From: Polyangiales bacterium
Lineage (GTDB): Bacteria > Myxococcota_A > Polyangia > Polyangiales > Ga0077539
Direction: 5' to 3'
NCBI GenBank assembly: GCA_044229975.1
Contig: JBGARZ010000001.1
Span: forward strand, 416,001-480,000
Length of the DNA stretch: 64,000 bases
In this document: one piece after another, positions 29,591 to 34,830 of the stretch
How the letters are laid out: each line of letters begins with the position of its first letter
Position numbering within the stretch: position 1 is the stretch's first letter
Made by a program: the position numbers and the translations under genes
Notes under the pieces: model-generated
What the model saw: only the letters and a program-made list of their open reading frames with translations
Databases searched by the model: none
What the model was told of the DNA's origin: nothing

Positions 29591-30790
29591 TCACACTTCG
29601 TCGAAGGTGCGTCGCGCGGCGACCCGATCGAGGATGCGATCGGCGACCTCGACCTTCGACAATCGCGGCAGCGCCTCGACCTCCGACGCGGTCACCAACG
29701 TGACAAGGTTGTCCTCCCCTTCGAAGCCATCGACCGCGAGGTTGGCCACCACGAGGTCACAGCCCTTGCGCTTGAGCTTGTCGCGGGCGCGCTCGACGAG
29801 CTCGCTGGTCTCGAGCGCGAAGCCCACCAGCATCGGGCCGTCGGGCGCGCGATGGGCGCCGAGCTCGGCGAGGATGTCGGGGTTCTTCACGAGGCGCACC
29901 GTGAGCTCGTCGGCGGACTTCTTGATCTTCTCCCCGGCGACGTCGGCGGGGCGGTAATCGGCGACGGCCGCGGCCATCACCACGGCGTCCGCTCCGACGC
30001 TCGCAGTCATCACCGCGTCGCGCATCTCCCTCGCACTTCGCACGGCCACCACGGTCACACCTCCCGGCGGCGTGAGAGCGCTCGGACCGCTCACCAGCAC
30101 CACGCTCGCACCACGGGCGCGCGCCCGCGCGGCGAGGGCGTAGCCCATGCGACCCGACGACCGGTTGCCGACGAAGCGCACCGGATCGATGGCTTCGTGG
30201 GTGCCGCCCGCGCTGACGACGACACGACGCCCGGCGAGGTCTTGCGGCGTGAGCGCGCGCGCGGCAGCCAGTGCGATGTCCTCGGGCTCGACCATGCGAC
30301 CGATGCCGCTCTCGCCGCTCGCGAGCGGGCCCACCGCGGGCCCCGCGAAGACGACACCACGCGCCGCGAGGAGGGCGACGTTGGCGTGCGTGGCGGGGTG
30401 TTCCCACATGCGCGGGTGCATCGCGGGGGCGACCACGACGGGGCCGCGCGCGGCGAGCAGGCAGGTGGTGGCGAGGTCGTCGGCGAGGCCGTGGACCATG
30501 CGCGCGAGGAGGTCGGCGGTGGCGGGCGCGACCACGACGAGGTCGGCCTTCGCCGTGAGCGCGATGTGCAGCTCGCCCGGGTACGACGGGTCCCAGAGGT
30601 CGACGCGCGCGGCGCGGCCCGTGATGCCCGCAAAGGTCACGCCCGAGATGAAGCGCTGCCCCGCGTGGGTGAGCACCGTCTCCACCGAGGCGCCCGCGCG
30701 CTGGAGTTCTCTCGCGACGAGGGCCGACTTGAAGGCCGCGATGCCGCCGCCGACGACGAGCAGCACCTCGCGACCGGTGAGCGCGCTCAT
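29591..30790 (-). CDS. coaBC: Phosphopantothenoylcysteine decarboxylase/ligase CoaBC
   Basis: GGIAAFK, APATAD, PAMHPRMW, DPVRFVGNRSSGRMG, AAVADY, GFALET. Confidence 0.96.
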   Translation of the reverse strand: MSALTGREVLLVVGGGIAAFKSALVARELQRAGASVETVLTHAGQRFISGVTFAGITGRAARVDLWDPSYPGELHIALTAKADLVVVAPATADLLARMVHGLADDLATTCLLAARGPVVVAPAMHPRMWEHPATHANVALLAARGVVFAGPAVGPLASGESGIGRMVEPEDIALAAARALTPQDLAGRRVVVSAGGTHEAIDPVRFVGNRSSGRMGYALAARARARGASVVLVSGPSALTPPGGVTVVAVRSAREMRDAVMTASVGADAVVMAAAVADYRPADVAGEKIKKSADELTVRLVKNPDILAELGAHRAPDGPMLVGFALETSELVERARDKLKRKGCDLVVANLAVDGFEGEDNLVTLVTASEVEALPRLSKVEVADRILDRVAARRTFDEV

Positions 30791-32391
30791 CGGGGTCGCG
30801 CCGCGGGGCGAGCCGGGGCCACTGCGCACCGAGCGCCGCCGCAGCCGGGCTGCACCACGCGACCGGCGGCACCAGCGGCGGACATGGCTTGCGCCGTGAC
30901 GGGCGGGAGCGCGCGGGTGAGGCCCTGGCGAACCATCCAGCCGGTGGTTCCGCAGAAGCCGGGGCGGCGAACCTCCTGGATGTCGTCGCTCTCCACGGGC
31001 TGCGTGAGCGCGAGGTACTGGTCGGCGGTGTACTCGGGGTGGTCGTCCTGGCGCGGGGCCGTGGCGCTGAGGGCCGCGCCGGTGCCGACGTGCCACACCT
31101 GCACCGTCGGGGGATACGCGTCCTGCCAGCGCTCGCGGATGGCCTGGTCGCCCTCGCGCACGATGCGGTAGCGCGTCACGCGGAAGCCCGGAATACCCCG
31201 CTGCGTAAGAACGCGGGTGCCGATGGGGAGGCTCGCGTCGGGCACCTCGCGCTCTTCGAAGCGGTCGACGCGCGGCATGATCTTGCGCACGAAGGTGACC
31301 GAGCGGGCGCGGCGGGCGCCGAGGAGCTCGATGCGCGCGAGGCCGTTGTTGAGCCGCGTGTGGATGACCACCGGGAAGGGCAGCGTGTTGCGCAGGCGCA
31401 GGTTGATGGACGGGTACACGACGGTCGCGTCGAGGCCCATCTTGATGTAGCCGCTGGGGCGCGAGTGGGGCGTGCGGTCGAGCACCTCCATCCCCGCGAA
31501 GAACGACGCGGCGTGCAGGCTGCCGGCGATCTGGCAGACGCCGCCGCCGACGCCGTCGATGAGCTCTCCCGCCGAGATGACGGTGGCCATGCGGAAGCCG
31601 TTGGCCTCGGAGCGGTCGCCCACGATGCCGTTGAAGTCGAGCACGGCGCCGGGCATCCAGACGTAGCCGTTGATGCGGCTCGCCGCGAGGTGGAGGTTGT
31701 ACGTGCGGTCGCGGTGGTCTTCGTTGGCGTTGTAGTTGGTCTGAAACCAGCCGACGACGGCGTTCATCTCGACGTCGCGGAGCTGGGCCGAGGTCATCGC
31801 GGGGTTGGTGTGTTCGAGCACGGCGTCGAGGCGGGGCTGCCCGCTGGTGAAGGCCGCGTCGAGCTGCGCGAGGGTGCCGAAGACGTCGAGGAAGGTTCCG
31901 CGCCGCTCGGGGATGACGCGGCGTTGCTCGACGTCGATGCGGGCGTCGACGGGCAGGTGGTCGACCTCCTCCTTCAACTGCGCGAGCAGCGGGAGCGCCA
32001 CGGCGCCTTCGAGGCGCACCGGGAGCGGGAGTTCGATCGGCCCGTGCGCGAGGGCGGCGTGGTGACGGACGAGCGCGCTCGACGGGTCGGCCGCGGCGCG
32101 CAGGAGGTGTTCGAGGAGGTGCACGTCGACGCGGGCGCCGAGGGACTCGCGGGTGCGTTCGAGGGAGTGGTCCTCGGCCACGACGGTGACGCGCTCGCGG
32201 AGGAAGGCGCGGGCGAGCGAGAGGGCCTGCGCGTGCGGGTCGTGGCTCAGCGTGACGGGCCGCCCGCGAACGCGCACCCGCGGGACACCCGCCGCCTGCG
32301 GCGCGCGCTCGGGGAGCAGGAGGTAGCCGATGCCGCCGCCCATGAGGGCGAAGGCGAGGGACAGCGCAACCAGTCGCAGCCAGCGGGTCAT
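30787..32391 (-). CDS. VanW-family membrane-anchored protein
   Basis: N-terminal TM; RTYNLHLAASRING, GVGGGVCQI, RTPHS, GLDATV. Confidence 0.88.
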   Translation of the reverse strand: MTRWLRLVALSLAFALMGGGIGYLLLPERAPQAAGVPRVRVRGRPVTLSHDPHAQALSLARAFLRERVTVVAEDHSLERTRESLGARVDVHLLEHLLRAAADPSSALVRHHAALAHGPIELPLPVRLEGAVALPLLAQLKEEVDHLPVDARIDVEQRRVIPERRGTFLDVFGTLAQLDAAFTSGQPRLDAVLEHTNPAMTSAQLRDVEMNAVVGWFQTNYNANEDHRDRTYNLHLAASRINGYVWMPGAVLDFNGIVGDRSEANGFRMATVISAGELIDGVGGGVCQIAGSLHAASFFAGMEVLDRTPHSRPSGYIKMGLDATVVYPSINLRLRNTLPFPVVIHTRLNNGLARIELLGARRARSVTFVRKIMPRVDRFEEREVPDASLPIGTRVLTQRGIPGFRVTRYRIVREGDQAIRERWQDAYPPTVQVWHVGTGAALSATAPRQDDHPEYTADQYLALTQPVESDDIQEVRRPGFCGTTGWMVRQGLTRALPPVTAQAMSAAGAAGRVVQPGCGGARCAVAPARPAARPR

Positions 32392-32509
32392 TGGGAGCTC
32401 CGACCCGGCGGTAGACCGGCGGAGCCAGCGGGTCAACATCCCGGCGCCCTCCCCCCCGGCCGGCGACCCATCGGGACCTCCCGCCCATTGGTGGCAATGG
32501 AGAGTGCGT

Positions 32510-32563
32510 TGAAAAATAATTGATCACCGTGCTTGACGGATATCGGATGTGTCGGTTATCCCT
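32510..32563 (+). promoter_or_regulatory. Putative sigma70 promoter with AT-rich UP-like element for the leader/tRNA operon
   Basis: AAAAATAATT at 32512-32521; TTGACG at 32533-32538; weak -10 (TATCCC near 32557). Confidence 0.5.
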
Positions 32564-32591
32564 TGTGGGCACTCAAGGAAGTGCCTTCGCC

Positions 32592-32720
32592 ATGAACCTC
32601 CTCTTCCTCCACTCCCGCTGCCCTTCACGATCGTCGTCCGGACCGTCATCCAGTCGGTCCAGTCGCTCGTGTTGTTGCGTCGACTGCGGGAGCAGGAGCC
32701 GCGCGCTTTCATCGGGATAA
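32592..32720 (+). CDS. Putative Ser/Cys-rich attenuator leader peptide (42 aa)
   Basis: MNLLFLHSRCPSRSSSGPSSSRSSRSCCCVDCGSRSRALSSG: 15 Ser, 5 Cys; AAGGA upstream; directly precedes a hairpin and Ser/Cys tRNA genes. Confidence 0.8.
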   Translation: MNLLFLHSRCPSRSSSGPSSSRSSRSCCCVDCGSRSRALSSG

Positions 32721-32750
32721 CAAGCCCGCAGCGCGCACGTAGGTCTCGAT

Positions 32751-32793
32751 GAGGCCGGCTCCTCCCCGACGGGAAGGGTCGGCCTCTCTCGTT
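32751..32793 (+). terminator. Attenuator terminator-like hairpin
   Basis: GAGGCCGGCTCCTCCC-CGAC-GGGAAGGGTCGGCCTC (15 of 16 positions pair, including G-U), followed by TCTCGTT. Confidence 0.75.
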
Positions 32794-32896
32794 GGGGTTC
32801 AGGCTCCGCGAACGCCACCGATCGGCGCGGCCTGACGGGGCCGACGCGAGGGCCGCGGTGCGTCCGTTGTCGACAATGATGTGGTCAATGATTCTT

Positions 32897-32969
32897 CACG
32901 CCGCTCACCAGTGTGGAGCACCGGTCTGCAAAACCGGGCGTACGGGGGCAGCACCCGTCGGCGTGTCCA
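32897..32969 (+). tRNA. Atypical tRNA-Cys(GCA)
   Basis: Acceptor CACGCCG/CGGCGTG, U73, encoded CCA; anticodon arm CCGGT-CTGCAAA-ACCGG; T-arm ACGGG-GGCAGCA-CCCGT (non-canonical loop); irregular D-arm. Confidence 0.8.
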
Positions 32970-32987
32970 GTGATGGCTGGAATCTAC

Positions 32988-33073
32988 GGAAGGGCAAGCC
33001 GATTGGTTGACGGCACCTGTCCTGAAAATAGGCGAGCGTGATTGCCTTGGGGGTTCGACTCCCTCCCCTTCCG
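32988..33073 (+). tRNA. Divergent tRNA-Ser(UGA)
   Basis: Acceptor GGAAGGG/CCCTTCC, G73; D-stem GCCG/CGGC; anticodon arm CCTGT-CCTGAAA-ATAGG (C33); long variable region; T-loop TTCGACT. Confidence 0.85.
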
Positions 33074-33137
33074 CCCACTCTTGTTCATTGAAGGAGACGA
33101 CATCATGTGACGGCATCGAGACGAGTGTGATTCCTCT

Positions 33138-33222
33138 GGAAGGGCAAGCCGATTGGCTGACGGCACCGGCTTCGAATACCGGCGAGCGATGAGCCTTGGG
33201 GGTTCGACTCCCCCTCCTTCCG
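33138..33222 (+). tRNA. Divergent tRNA-Ser(CGA)
   Basis: Acceptor GGAAGGG/TCCTTCC, G73; anticodon loop TTCGAAT (CGA at 33173-33175); T-arm GGGGG-TTCGACT-CCCCC. Confidence 0.85.
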
Positions 33223-33245
33223 CCGTTTCTCCGCGTTGTTTCTTT

Positions 33246-33331
33246 GGAGGATAGGGCATCTGGTCTGCCGAGCGGTCTGCTACAGCGTCGCCCGCGGAAG
33301 CGGGTAGTCGGTTCGATTCCGGCATCCTCCG
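33246..33331 (+). tRNA. Divergent tRNA-Ser(GCU)
   Basis: Acceptor GGAGGAT/ATCCTCC, G73; D-stem GGCA/TGCC; loop CTGCTAC; variable arm GCCCGC-GGAA-GCGGGT; T-arm GTCGG-TTCGATT-CCGGC; one G-G mismatch in the anticodon stem. Confidence 0.82.
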
Positions 33332-33350
33332 CTGTTTCCTTTGTATGTTT

Positions 33351-33438
33351 GGAGGCTACGACATCGGGTGTGTCAGACACGTTGGAAGCGTGTGGCTCGT
33401 CGCATGGCGAGCAGTCGGTTCGAGTCCGGCAACCTCCG
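33351..33438 (+). tRNA. Divergent tRNA-Ser(GGA)
   Basis: Acceptor GGAGGCT/AACCTCC (one C-A), G73; D-stem GACA/TGTC; ACACG-TTGGAAG-CGTGT; variable arm GCTCGTC-GCAT-GGCGAGC; T-loop TTCGAGT. Confidence 0.85.
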
Positions 33439-33510
33439 CCCCGCCCATGGAACCCCAGCGGCACGTCGCCGGGTCGCCTCCTCCCACGCGCTCACGAGAG
33501 GCGTCGCCTC

Positions 33511-34830
33511 TCAGCGTCGACGGCTGCTGGCCGGCCCCCGCGGACGCTTCGACGGAGCGGCGACGTAGCGACTGACTGCGGATCGTCGCGGATGCGCGCG
33601 CAGGACGCAGGTGACCCTCGCCTCGTCGGCGTCGAACTCCGGCGGCGGGCTCCCGAGGTCCGCCATGGTGCGGCGCATGGTCGGCACGCCCTGCCCCTCC
33701 CCCTGGGCCAGCTTGAGCTGGAGGAAGAACCACGCGAGCGACTGGTTGCGCCACCGCGGCGACTCGCGCCCCTCGCGCAGCGCCTCCAGCGACACGCCGC
33801 GGAGCAGCGCCCCCGGAGACACCGTCTCGACGCGGTCGACGAAGGCCGTCACGCGCGTCGGGTCATCCAGCTCGTAGTCGCGGTGCACCAGGGCGTTGAT
33901 CGCTGCCTCGTGGAGCGCCCGCCGTGGGTACGTCTCGACGTCCGGCACGTCGACGTCGGTCTTCTCGAAGAGCCGCACCACCTCGGCGTCGAGCAGCGCG
34001 AGGAGGCGACGGGCCTGCTCGACGAGCGCGCCGGTGAGCTCGTGGCGCTCCGCGGTTGATTCGGAGCGATCGACGCCCCGGTAGCGCGAGAAGAAGGTCA
34101 CGGCGCCGGGGAAGAAGCGCGTCGGGTCGCGCCCGAAGAGCAGCACCGCGAAGTTGCGTGGCCGTCGCACACCCGTGAGCGCCTCGGTCACGCACAGCGA
34201 CGGCACGAGCGCGTGCAACCGAACACCGTCACCCAGCAGGTCCTCGACGCCGAGCCCATCGTCGACGCGCCCGATGCGGAGGAGGGTGTCGCGCAACGCC
34301 AGCAGGTCGAGGTCGGCGACCGTCGCCGTCGCGCACGGGCGACGATCCCAGGGCTCCAGCGCCCCCTTCCGCGTCAGCAGCTCGCGCAGCACGCCGTTGC
34401 GCGCCTCTTCCGTGCTCGACCCGCGCCGGACGTGGTGGAGCGTGTTTCCGTCGGCGTGCCGGAACATGTGCGCGTGCGGCGTCGCGGGCTGTACGAACAC
34501 CAGCACCCGGCGGTCATCGGTGTCCGCGGGCAGCTCGTGGACGAGCGGAGTGATCGCCGGGGAGACCCGATCGCGGCAGCGCGTGAGCACCATGCCGACG
34601 ACCTCCTTCAGTCGCGTCGCCGTGAGGCCAACGCGCAGCAGCTTCGGGAAGCCGTGCTCGTCCTTCGTCTCGCTGGCGCCGCACACCACGTAGCCGCCGC
34701 CGAGGTTGGGGAGGTCATTGGCGAAGGCCGAGAGCGTCGCCACCACGCCGTCGGGGCTGGCGACGTTTTCCTTCCACTCGACCTGCTCGCTCTCGCGAGC
34801 TGCCAGCTCCCGCAGATCGATCGCGACCAT
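33511..34830 (-). CDS. Schlafen/AlbA_2-domain protein with HATPase_c_4-like C-terminal domain
   Basis: ESEQVEWKE, SAFAN...GGGYVVCG; YPRRALHEAAINALVHRDY, SPG, RN...GQG. Confidence 0.85.
   Translation of the reverse strand: MVAIDLRELAARESEQVEWKENVASPDGVVATLSAFANDLPNLGGGYVVCGASETKDEHGFPKLLRVGLTATRLKEVVGMVLTRCRDRVSPAITPLVHELPADTDDRRVLVFVQPATPHAHMFRHADGNTLHHVRRGSSTEEARNGVLRELLTRKGALEPWDRRPCATATVADLDLLALRDTLLRIGRVDDGLGVEDLLGDGVRLHALVPSLCVTEALTGVRRPRNFAVLLFGRDPTRFFPGAVTFFSRYRGVDRSESTAERHELTGALVEQARRLLALLDAEVVRLFEKTDVDVPDVETYPRRALHEAAINALVHRDYELDDPTRVTAFVDRVETVSPGALLRGVSLEALREGRESPRWRNQSLAWFFLQLKLAQGEGQGVPTMRRTMADLGSPPPEFDADEARVTCVLRAHPRRSAVSRYVAAPSKRPRGPASSRRR

Follow-up and report, generated by a model that had tools for sequence, protein, structure and literature searches.

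Classical leader-peptide attenuators include those of Escherichia coli, namely trpL, hisL, the multivalent thrL and ilvL, and pheM-pheST. The T-box riboswitch is an antiterminator/terminator switch that reports on a tRNA species. To our knowledge, leader-peptide attenuation is known only for protein operons (biosynthesis, synthetases, resistance). Other systems touch on accessory tRNAs or on sensory short ORFs. In the one studied L-array/trn operon, that of Anabaena PCC 7120, control is reported to lie with direct repeats in the promoter and with the TrcR repressor (PMC8421152, PMC10272220); term counts of the available text of both found neither 'attenuat' nor 'leader'. Polycysteine short-ORF attenuators of mycobacteria make up a Cys 'ribulon', whose loci, in the part of the source available, gate protein-gene translation by freeing the ribosome-binding site and all sense one amino acid (bioRxiv 10.1101/834739). 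Phage tRNAs have been proposed, in the accessible text of a further report, to evade anticodon nucleases (PMC10264068).

A stretch of 64,000 nt of the Polyangiales bacterium GCA_044229975.1 (contig JBGARZ010000001.1, 416,001-480,000, forward strand; the window) was analysed computationally. It carries a locus that is best read, with a rough probability of 0.72, as a ribosome-controlled leader-peptide transcription attenuator with tRNA as its output (Table 1). The predicted target is a tRNA-Cys/tRNA-Ser cluster and not a protein operon. No report of leader-peptide control of tRNA genes was found in the open-access literature, and an attenuator of the classical type with tRNA genes as the regulated output thus appears to be unreported.

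Table 1. Features of the leader and the accessory tRNA cluster (positions in the window).
Feature	Position	Strand	Basis
Sigma70-like promoter of the leader, TTGACG-18 nt-TATCCC	32533..32562	+	sequence, rule-based box search
Weak Shine-Dalgarno-like AAGGAAG, 10 nt 5' of the ATG	32575..32581	+	read from sequence; function inferred
Leader ORF, 42 codons	32592..32720	+	sequence; stop codon at 32718
Antiterminator 5' strand AT1, AGGAGCCG, inside the ORF, pairs with 32756-32763	32694..32701	+	sequence, masked folding, homologue motif
GCGCGCT/AGCGCGC helix, hairpin over the stop codon, nested within the antiterminator	32701..32736	+	masked folding, P 0.94 when antiterminated
Terminator-like hairpin 32751-32786 and lineage-type tail TCTCGTTGGGG	32751..32799	+	folding, shuffles, resemblance to housekeeping tRNA 3' hairpins
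Atypical tRNA-Cys(GCA)-like gene: U73, encoded CCA, T-loop GGCAGCA	32897..32969	+	similarity to array tRNA; candidate
tRNA-Ser(UGA), accessory copy	32988..33075	+	ARAGORN, Rfam RF00005; housekeeping copy on C11
tRNA-Ser(CGA), accessory copy	33138..33224	+	ARAGORN; 90% identical to G019 array tRNA
tRNA-Ser(GCU), accessory copy	33246..33332	+	ARAGORN, similarity to array tRNAs
tRNA-Ser(GGA), accessory copy	33351..33439	+	ARAGORN, similarity to array tRNAs

The locus shares with trpL, hisL, thrL, ilvL and pheM a short ORF of cognate codons, an antiterminator strand near the end of the ORF, an exclusive terminator hairpin and a predicted ribosome-position switch. Like thrL and ilvL it is multivalent, here for Ser and Cys. 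Its output is tRNA genes, whereas that of trpL, hisL and pheM-pheST is biosynthetic or synthetase proteins. Unlike in the classical attenuators, the match is at the codon/anticodon level, the tail is U-poor and, in folding, it is the antiterminator and not the terminator that forms when no ribosome is present. The T-box riboswitch has in common with it an antiterminator/terminator switch reporting on a tRNA species. However, the only Rfam matches in the window at gathering score or E<=5 were tRNA-type, with no stem I, specifier or T-box and no known leader, and sensing is predicted here to proceed via the translating ribosome. As in the Anabaena L-array, supernumerary tRNA genes stand beside a full housekeeping set, with induction on impaired translation known there and proposed here. 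The window holds five genes in place of one long array, although relatives hold long arrays with homologous genes. In contrast to the L-array, an attenuator heads the relatives' arrays, and in the source genome there are small clusters with matched leaders. The Cys 'ribulon' likewise has sensory short ORFs at a number of unlinked loci, and a Cys-rich tract; it differs in that each locus here matches different codons and the targets are non-coding.

The first ATG 3' of the TTGACG-N18-TATCCC box is that of the leader ORF (32592), and in a rule-based box search a similar box also preceded the homologous leaders of genomes G004 and G005. A consensus promoter scan chose 32491-32520 rather than this box; a promoter there would bring in an in-frame ATG at 32547, with the stop codon unchanged. 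The leader ORF is probably translated. It contains 15 Ser codons (TCC4, TCG4, TCA3, AGT2, AGC2) and 5 Cys codons, with Cys-Cys-Cys at codons 27-29. The five downstream tRNAs read 20 of the 41 codons that follow the start (binomial p 3e-9 and 8e-9 with two backgrounds), including codons that are rare in the genes of this genome (TCA 1.5, AGT 0.8, TGT 1.6 per 1000). The Pfam search gave no family matching the leader peptide. A functional peptide as the main role was rejected, as there is no Pfam family and the peptide varies in sequence and length among homologues.

The five helices proposed in the first-pass annotation are all present in the sequence. The terminator-like stem (32751-32766/32771-32786) has 13 Watson-Crick pairs, 2 G-U pairs and 1 C-A mismatch, followed by the tail. 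AT1 (32694-32701/32756-32763) is paired at 8/8 positions by Watson-Crick pairs, and a second helix, AT2 (32707-32717/32744-32754), has 8 Watson-Crick and 3 G-U pairs. Both 7-bp helices are perfect (CTGCGGG 32684-32690/CCCGCAG 32725-32731 and GCGCGCT 32701-32707/AGCGCGC 32730-32736). Since AT1 and the terminator both use the strand 32756-32763, they are mutually exclusive. The hairpin region folded with -32.7 kcal/mol (z -3.08), an energy equalled by 0/200 shuffles, and the whole leader with z -3.26. AT1 by itself was borderline in this 71% GC sequence (p about 0.053, 300 shuffles); its support comes from conservation and covariation among homologues and not from single-sequence complementarity. 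The competition among helices that had been annotated stood only for some of them. In masked folding AT1 with the nested GCGCGCT/AGCGCGC helix (P 0.94) constituted the antiterminator; probabilities of 0.04 for AT2 and 0.00 for the CTGCGGG helix led to their rejection as core elements. Among the matches listed, a T>C change at 32750 in related-strain contigs disrupts one AT2 pair.

To follow the effect of the ribosome, the leader was folded with a crude mask covering everything up to 14 nt beyond the A site, and ribosome position was found to shift the fold. In the transcript cut in the hairpin loop, AT1 formed with P 0.85-0.88 when the A site was at codons 1-30. In the full transcript the terminator was disfavoured at codons 19-30 (P<=0.28), prevailed from codon 31 (P>=0.83) and gave mixed values (0.04-0.96) at codons 4-18. 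The computed switch lies at codon 30/31, and the last permissive stretch of the A site, codons 19-30, comprises Ser19-Ser26 and Cys27-29. The earlier proposal that a stall in the main Ser tract (codons 8-26) leaves the antiterminator strand free holds for codons 19-26 of the full transcript in these calculations; with the A site at codons 5-8 or 14-15, the terminator was favoured at equilibrium (P 0.70-0.96). Because the terminator prevails from codon 31, after Cys27-29, Cys is predicted to be sensed as much as Ser. It had also been proposed that a ribosome at the stop masks the AT1 strand. The terminator does prevail from codon 31 onwards, but with a ribosome at the stop the strand trails the A site by 17-24 nt, where the ribosome footprint ends, and AT1 is more likely to be blocked by melting during codons 31-42 than by cover at the stop. 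On this reading, slow decoding of Ser or Cys codons as far as codon 30 would let AT1 form and allow read-through into the five tRNA genes, and a ribosome running on to the stop would melt AT1, so that the hairpin forms and the transcript ends near 32795.

The tail of the hairpin is U-poor. The weak U-tract remarked on in the first-pass annotation was borne out by a standard U-tract terminator scan, in which 0 terminators were found. Canonical U-tracts are rare in this genome as a whole (6/333 perfect-hairpin counts with at least 5 T in 8 nt). A like hairpin and tail stand directly 3' of housekeeping tRNA genes, i.e. fMet, Ala(GGC) and Leu(GAG) in the source genome, Glu in G015 and G021, and Gly in G001. 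This resemblance supports termination at the tail, and standard scans would miss most terminators in this lineage. The consensus tail of the homologues is TTCTGCATTTGGGG, of which the window tail is a poorer member. Tails of the TTCTGCATTTGGGG type with a split U-tract occur at 1135126-1135188 of contig C32 and at the 3' ends of other housekeeping tRNA genes. In one study an RNA contig spans 32652-32797, with its end at the tail; it was not counted, since one contig is no proof of an RNA end. The U-poor tail could also point to a ribosome-read switch whose hairpin is not an intrinsic terminator but acts by way of RNA processing, decay or Rho-type termination. This is considered unlikely: the same hairpin-plus-tail design ends housekeeping tRNA units, the homologues G023b and G027b have U-richer tails, and the hairpin lies 110 nt 5' of the first tRNA without overlapping it. 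Termination at the U-poor tail is the reading we infer.

The tRNA cluster begins 100 nt past the tail. Downstream of the leader there are only tRNA genes, the next protein gene being on the opposite strand, and a consensus scan of the window found no promoter between the hairpin and the first tRNA. The four tRNA-Ser genes together cover every Ser codon. Separate housekeeping genes for Ser UGA, CGA, GCU and GGA and for Cys exist elsewhere in the genome, and hence the five genes of the window are supernumerary. The candidate tRNA-Cys gene was missed by ARAGORN in the window. It is 87% identical to a G019 array tRNA that relaxed ARAGORN calls as Cys(GCA), is kept in 9 aligned copies and has a possible eighth acceptor pair in relatives. 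The anticodon loop differs from that of the housekeeping copy in all 4 Ser genes and in 19/27 accessory tRNAs with a housekeeping counterpart; these are raw counts, not set against the rate of loop differences between unrelated tRNA lineages. In this the genes are like the redundant phage tRNAs reported to have altered anticodon loops; unlike those, they are chromosomal and under a codon-matched switch. The Rfam family sX4 ('Proteobacterial sRNA') aligned over tRNA-Ser(UGA) at 32976-33128 (E 0.016, below the gathering score). The sX4 consensus resembles a tRNA-Ser gene, and the family may hold array-type tRNAs.

The occurrence of the unit among relatives was then surveyed. A DNA search with the locus gave matches in 16/61 genomes and in 14/30 within the family; the unit was not found in 6/8 congeneric genomes in this search, the set being 64-94% complete. 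In most relatives the Cys and Ser genes lie within long accessory tRNA arrays, one of which carries a TROVE/Ro60 gene, and the genes of the window are 80-90% alike to these array tRNAs. A covariance model trained on 12 hairpins gave 57 matches in 29/31 family genomes. Thirty-three matches were examined (32 of the top 33 and one outside the family, in G101), and 30 units, including the 12 training hairpins, were kept. Two of the matches dropped lay directly 3' of housekeeping tRNA-Glu genes, and the one in G101 had no tRNA and no matching geometry. The one remaining match of the top 33 sits 3' of a tRNA-Gly gene. All 30 kept units have an ATG ORF of at least 30 codons ending 38-50 nt 5' of the hairpin arm, an arrangement seen at 2.0% of 5000 random positions, with the 38-50 nt range derived from the same data. 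The units are followed by tRNA genes in 28/30 cases (27 by relaxed ARAGORN, G005 by BLAST). In 10 of the 13 units with a TT[G/T]AC box inside the 420 nt examined, the first ATG past the box is that of the leader ORF.

The position of the ORF stop is fixed among these units, while the peptide varies in sequence and length (39-97 codons). An antiterminator motif of the GGAG[C/T] type lies 11-32 nt 5' of the stop in 29/30 homologues, with compensatory changes. The pairs covary: with the strand anchored by the motif, 120/168 flanking cells were Watson-Crick as against 99.2 +/- 3.7 on permutation (0/20,000), a test on 29/30 anchored units, 24 of them distinct, and on seven columns, two of which are partly fixed by the motif. 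The relatives are not independent, so that these permutation tests are inflated. One column carries A-T, C-G, G-C and T-A; others carry C-G/T-A and C-G/G-C. In cut transcripts with an upstream ribosome the antiterminator formed in 28/30 units and beat shuffled leaders in 29/30 (means 0.87 vs 0.56); G010 and G017 gave no switch in this folding. The classical attenuator geometry that had been assigned to the locus therefore holds in masked folding and is conserved across the 30 homologues, with covariation.

Some of the same comparisons would suit a hairpin that is a constitutive terminator of a short transcript, either a small RNA or a Cys-rich peptide, with complementarity arising from high GC and with the tRNAs silent or separately transcribed. 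The single-sequence p of AT1 is about 0.05, and AT1 alone was unremarkable against shuffles in several homologues (e.g. G017, G018, G009, G030b). In the full-length equilibrium fold the terminator won at all or nearly all ribosome positions in 8/12 homologues, including G004 and G005. In the G019 array a second promoter-like site (L034 5359-5386), adjoining AAACAAA-type repeats, lies between the hairpin and the first tRNA; it could bypass the attenuator or give dual control. L-arrays are also described as poorly transcribed (PMC8421152). A constitutive terminator is nevertheless very improbable in view of the compensatory changes in the antiterminator, the fixed stop of a varying peptide without a Pfam family, and the codon match between leader and tRNAs. 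On the attenuator reading, the dominance of the terminator at equilibrium in 8/12 homologues means that the switch must be kinetic.

Most of the units stand at the head of long accessory tRNA arrays, and the leaders of these (about 60-97 codons) have no single-residue bias. In the orthologous leaders of Cys/Ser clusters (G004, G005 and 5 near-identical metagenome loci) a Ser-Cys-Ser-Cys-Cys block is retained within the last permissive stretch; those of G004 and G005 are poorer in Ser than the window leader (6-7 Ser of 39). The hairpin was found as well in Myxococcales, Polyangiales and Deltaproteobacteria genomes, with one case shown to precede tRNA genes (L166). This case was the only one with tRNAs among the 13 checked of 34 matches in a pattern scan of species genomes. 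An order-wide model search outside the family gave weak matches in 21/120 genomes (best 41 bits), of which the one in G101 was inspected. Pattern scans of viral contigs gave 0 matches, and those of metagenomes 0 and then 8, of which 3/8 were unrelated coding DNA.

The accessory tRNAs of the source genome sit in small clusters, and the arrangement upstream of them was compared with that of housekeeping units. A promoter and then a short ORF precede the tRNAs in 10/11 accessory units versus 1/36 housekeeping units, by a rule (nearest sigma70-like box, then first ATG) whose hexamer list and classes were fixed after viewing the loci, with three units moved to housekeeping. In the housekeeping set, 21/36 units have the box directly before the tRNA and 13/36 have no box. 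When 8 non-redundant leaders were paired with clusters by cognate codons, the true pairing ranked 1 of 40,320 permutations with two backgrounds. The leader before Tyr/His ends in His-His-Pro-His-Arg-Tyr, which is kept with synonymous changes in G004 and G005. An Asn/Lys-rich leader precedes the Asn/Lys/Arg cluster (without AGA/AGG, although the Arg anticodon is UCU), a Glu/Arg/Asp-rich leader the Glu/Arg/Asp cluster (also in G005) and a Gly-rich leader the Gly cluster; CTG/CTT/TTG codons occur in the leader before Leu CAG/GAG/CAA. Between paralogous Glu/Arg/Asp clusters, the copy with Arg-CCU has three AGG codons in its leader and that with Arg-ACG none. Taken singly, the Leu, Trp/Phe/Gln and Tyr-only leaders were not significant for cognate codons (p 0.05-0.69).

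This codon matching bears on whether the leader is a general sensor of translation stress (antibiotics, slow ribosomes) like its array-heading relatives, its Ser/Cys content being incidental or minor. The lack of single-residue bias in homologous leaders before long arrays fits such a role, as does the antiterminator that forms without a ribosome, by which read-through would follow from any block of translation. General translational stress is also reported to induce the L-array of Anabaena (PMC8421152). However, 20/41 codons are cognate, all four Ser anticodons are covered and the match of leaders to clusters ranks first, which makes a purely general sensor quite unlikely, and general induction is itself compatible with codon specificity.

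The codon-matched leaders do not all share the terminator. The terminator model matches only 2/10 leaders of the source genome, those of the Cys/Ser and Arg(GCG)/Ro60 units, and the leaders without it must act differently. Among these, folding was clear only for Tyr/His, where the 5' acceptor strand of tRNA-Tyr is paired at P 0.75-1.0 with the His-His-Pro-His-Arg-Tyr codons in 4 copies (C4 and C34 of the source genome, L057, L058), with a matching change between the source genome and G005. These leaders may thus act on the folding or processing of the tRNA and not on termination. Both the pairing and the lack of such a terminator before most other codon-matched leaders speak for the processing or Rho-type alternative weighed above.

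Several of these units have further features. On C16 (42021-42340, L051) the leader is 105 codons long: a Trp codon immediately precedes tRNA-Trp, the frame continues across this tRNA gene, and a Gln-rich tract and Phe follow ahead of tRNA-Phe, Gln, Gln. On C19 (L053) a second short ORF, ending Lys-Arg-Lys, lies between tRNA-Asn and tRNA-Lys, before tRNA-Lys and tRNA-Arg. On C2 (9630-10700, L047; also L156) tRNA-Arg(GCG) is preceded by a paralogous attenuator whose leader is rich in Arg. That unit holds in addition a TROVE/Ro60-like gene and two repeats with a GCAGTAC...GGGATACTTC motif, which may be Ro60-linked RNAs. When five congeneric genomes were searched for the other clusters, Tyr/His was found in 2/5 and Glu/Arg/Asp in 1/5; for the Leu, Asn/Lys/Arg, Gly and Trp/Phe/Gln clusters they gave only housekeeping tRNAs or repeats. 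A search with a promoter-ATG pattern had 21 matches; the 10 that were inspected included no further leader of tRNA genes.

A divergent VanW/G5-domain gene (30787-32439, minus strand) shares the upstream region with the leader. The upstream gene differs in G004 and G005, and therefore the cluster has moved as a unit. A gene for a Schlafen/AlbA_2 and HATPase_c_4 protein (33514-34830, minus strand) converges on the last tRNA-Ser. Bacterial Schlafen nucleases can cut tRNA anticodon arms, as reported in PMC13056530; the position of this gene beside the tRNA cluster may be a chance insertion.

The trigger for which the switch was selected is most likely the loss of working tRNA-Ser/Cys by cleavage or inactivation, since extra tRNA would not cure a plain amino-acid shortage but can replace a lost tRNA. 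A plain shortage of Ser or Cys would trip the switch too. The likely purpose of the unit is a back-up against the loss of particular tRNAs. It probably descends from a codon-unspecific translation-stress attenuator of the kind found in relatives at the start of their long accessory tRNA arrays; as the array broke into small clusters, the leaders would have come to match their own tRNAs. The genes whose similarity points to descent from arrays are those for Cys, Ser, Arg(GCG) and Thr alone. A wider proposal, to which we give somewhat less than an even chance, is that of a genome-wide, codon-resolved circuit of tRNA quality control, in which damage to one tRNA species (e.g. by an anticodon nuclease) would induce exactly its replacements, and which would have arisen by specialising the generic array-heading attenuator. 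If this is true, each small cluster of spare, loop-altered tRNAs has its own ribosome test track.

In such an attenuator the sensor would read decoding speed at given codons and the output would be the tRNAs that read those codons, giving a direct feedback loop on tRNA supply. The leaders could serve as in vivo reporters of the loss of single tRNAs. The locus offers a testable account of the function and induction of supernumerary 'cryptic' tRNA arrays. Both ends of their evolution are present in the family, with unspecialised leaders before whole arrays and codon-matched leaders before small clusters.
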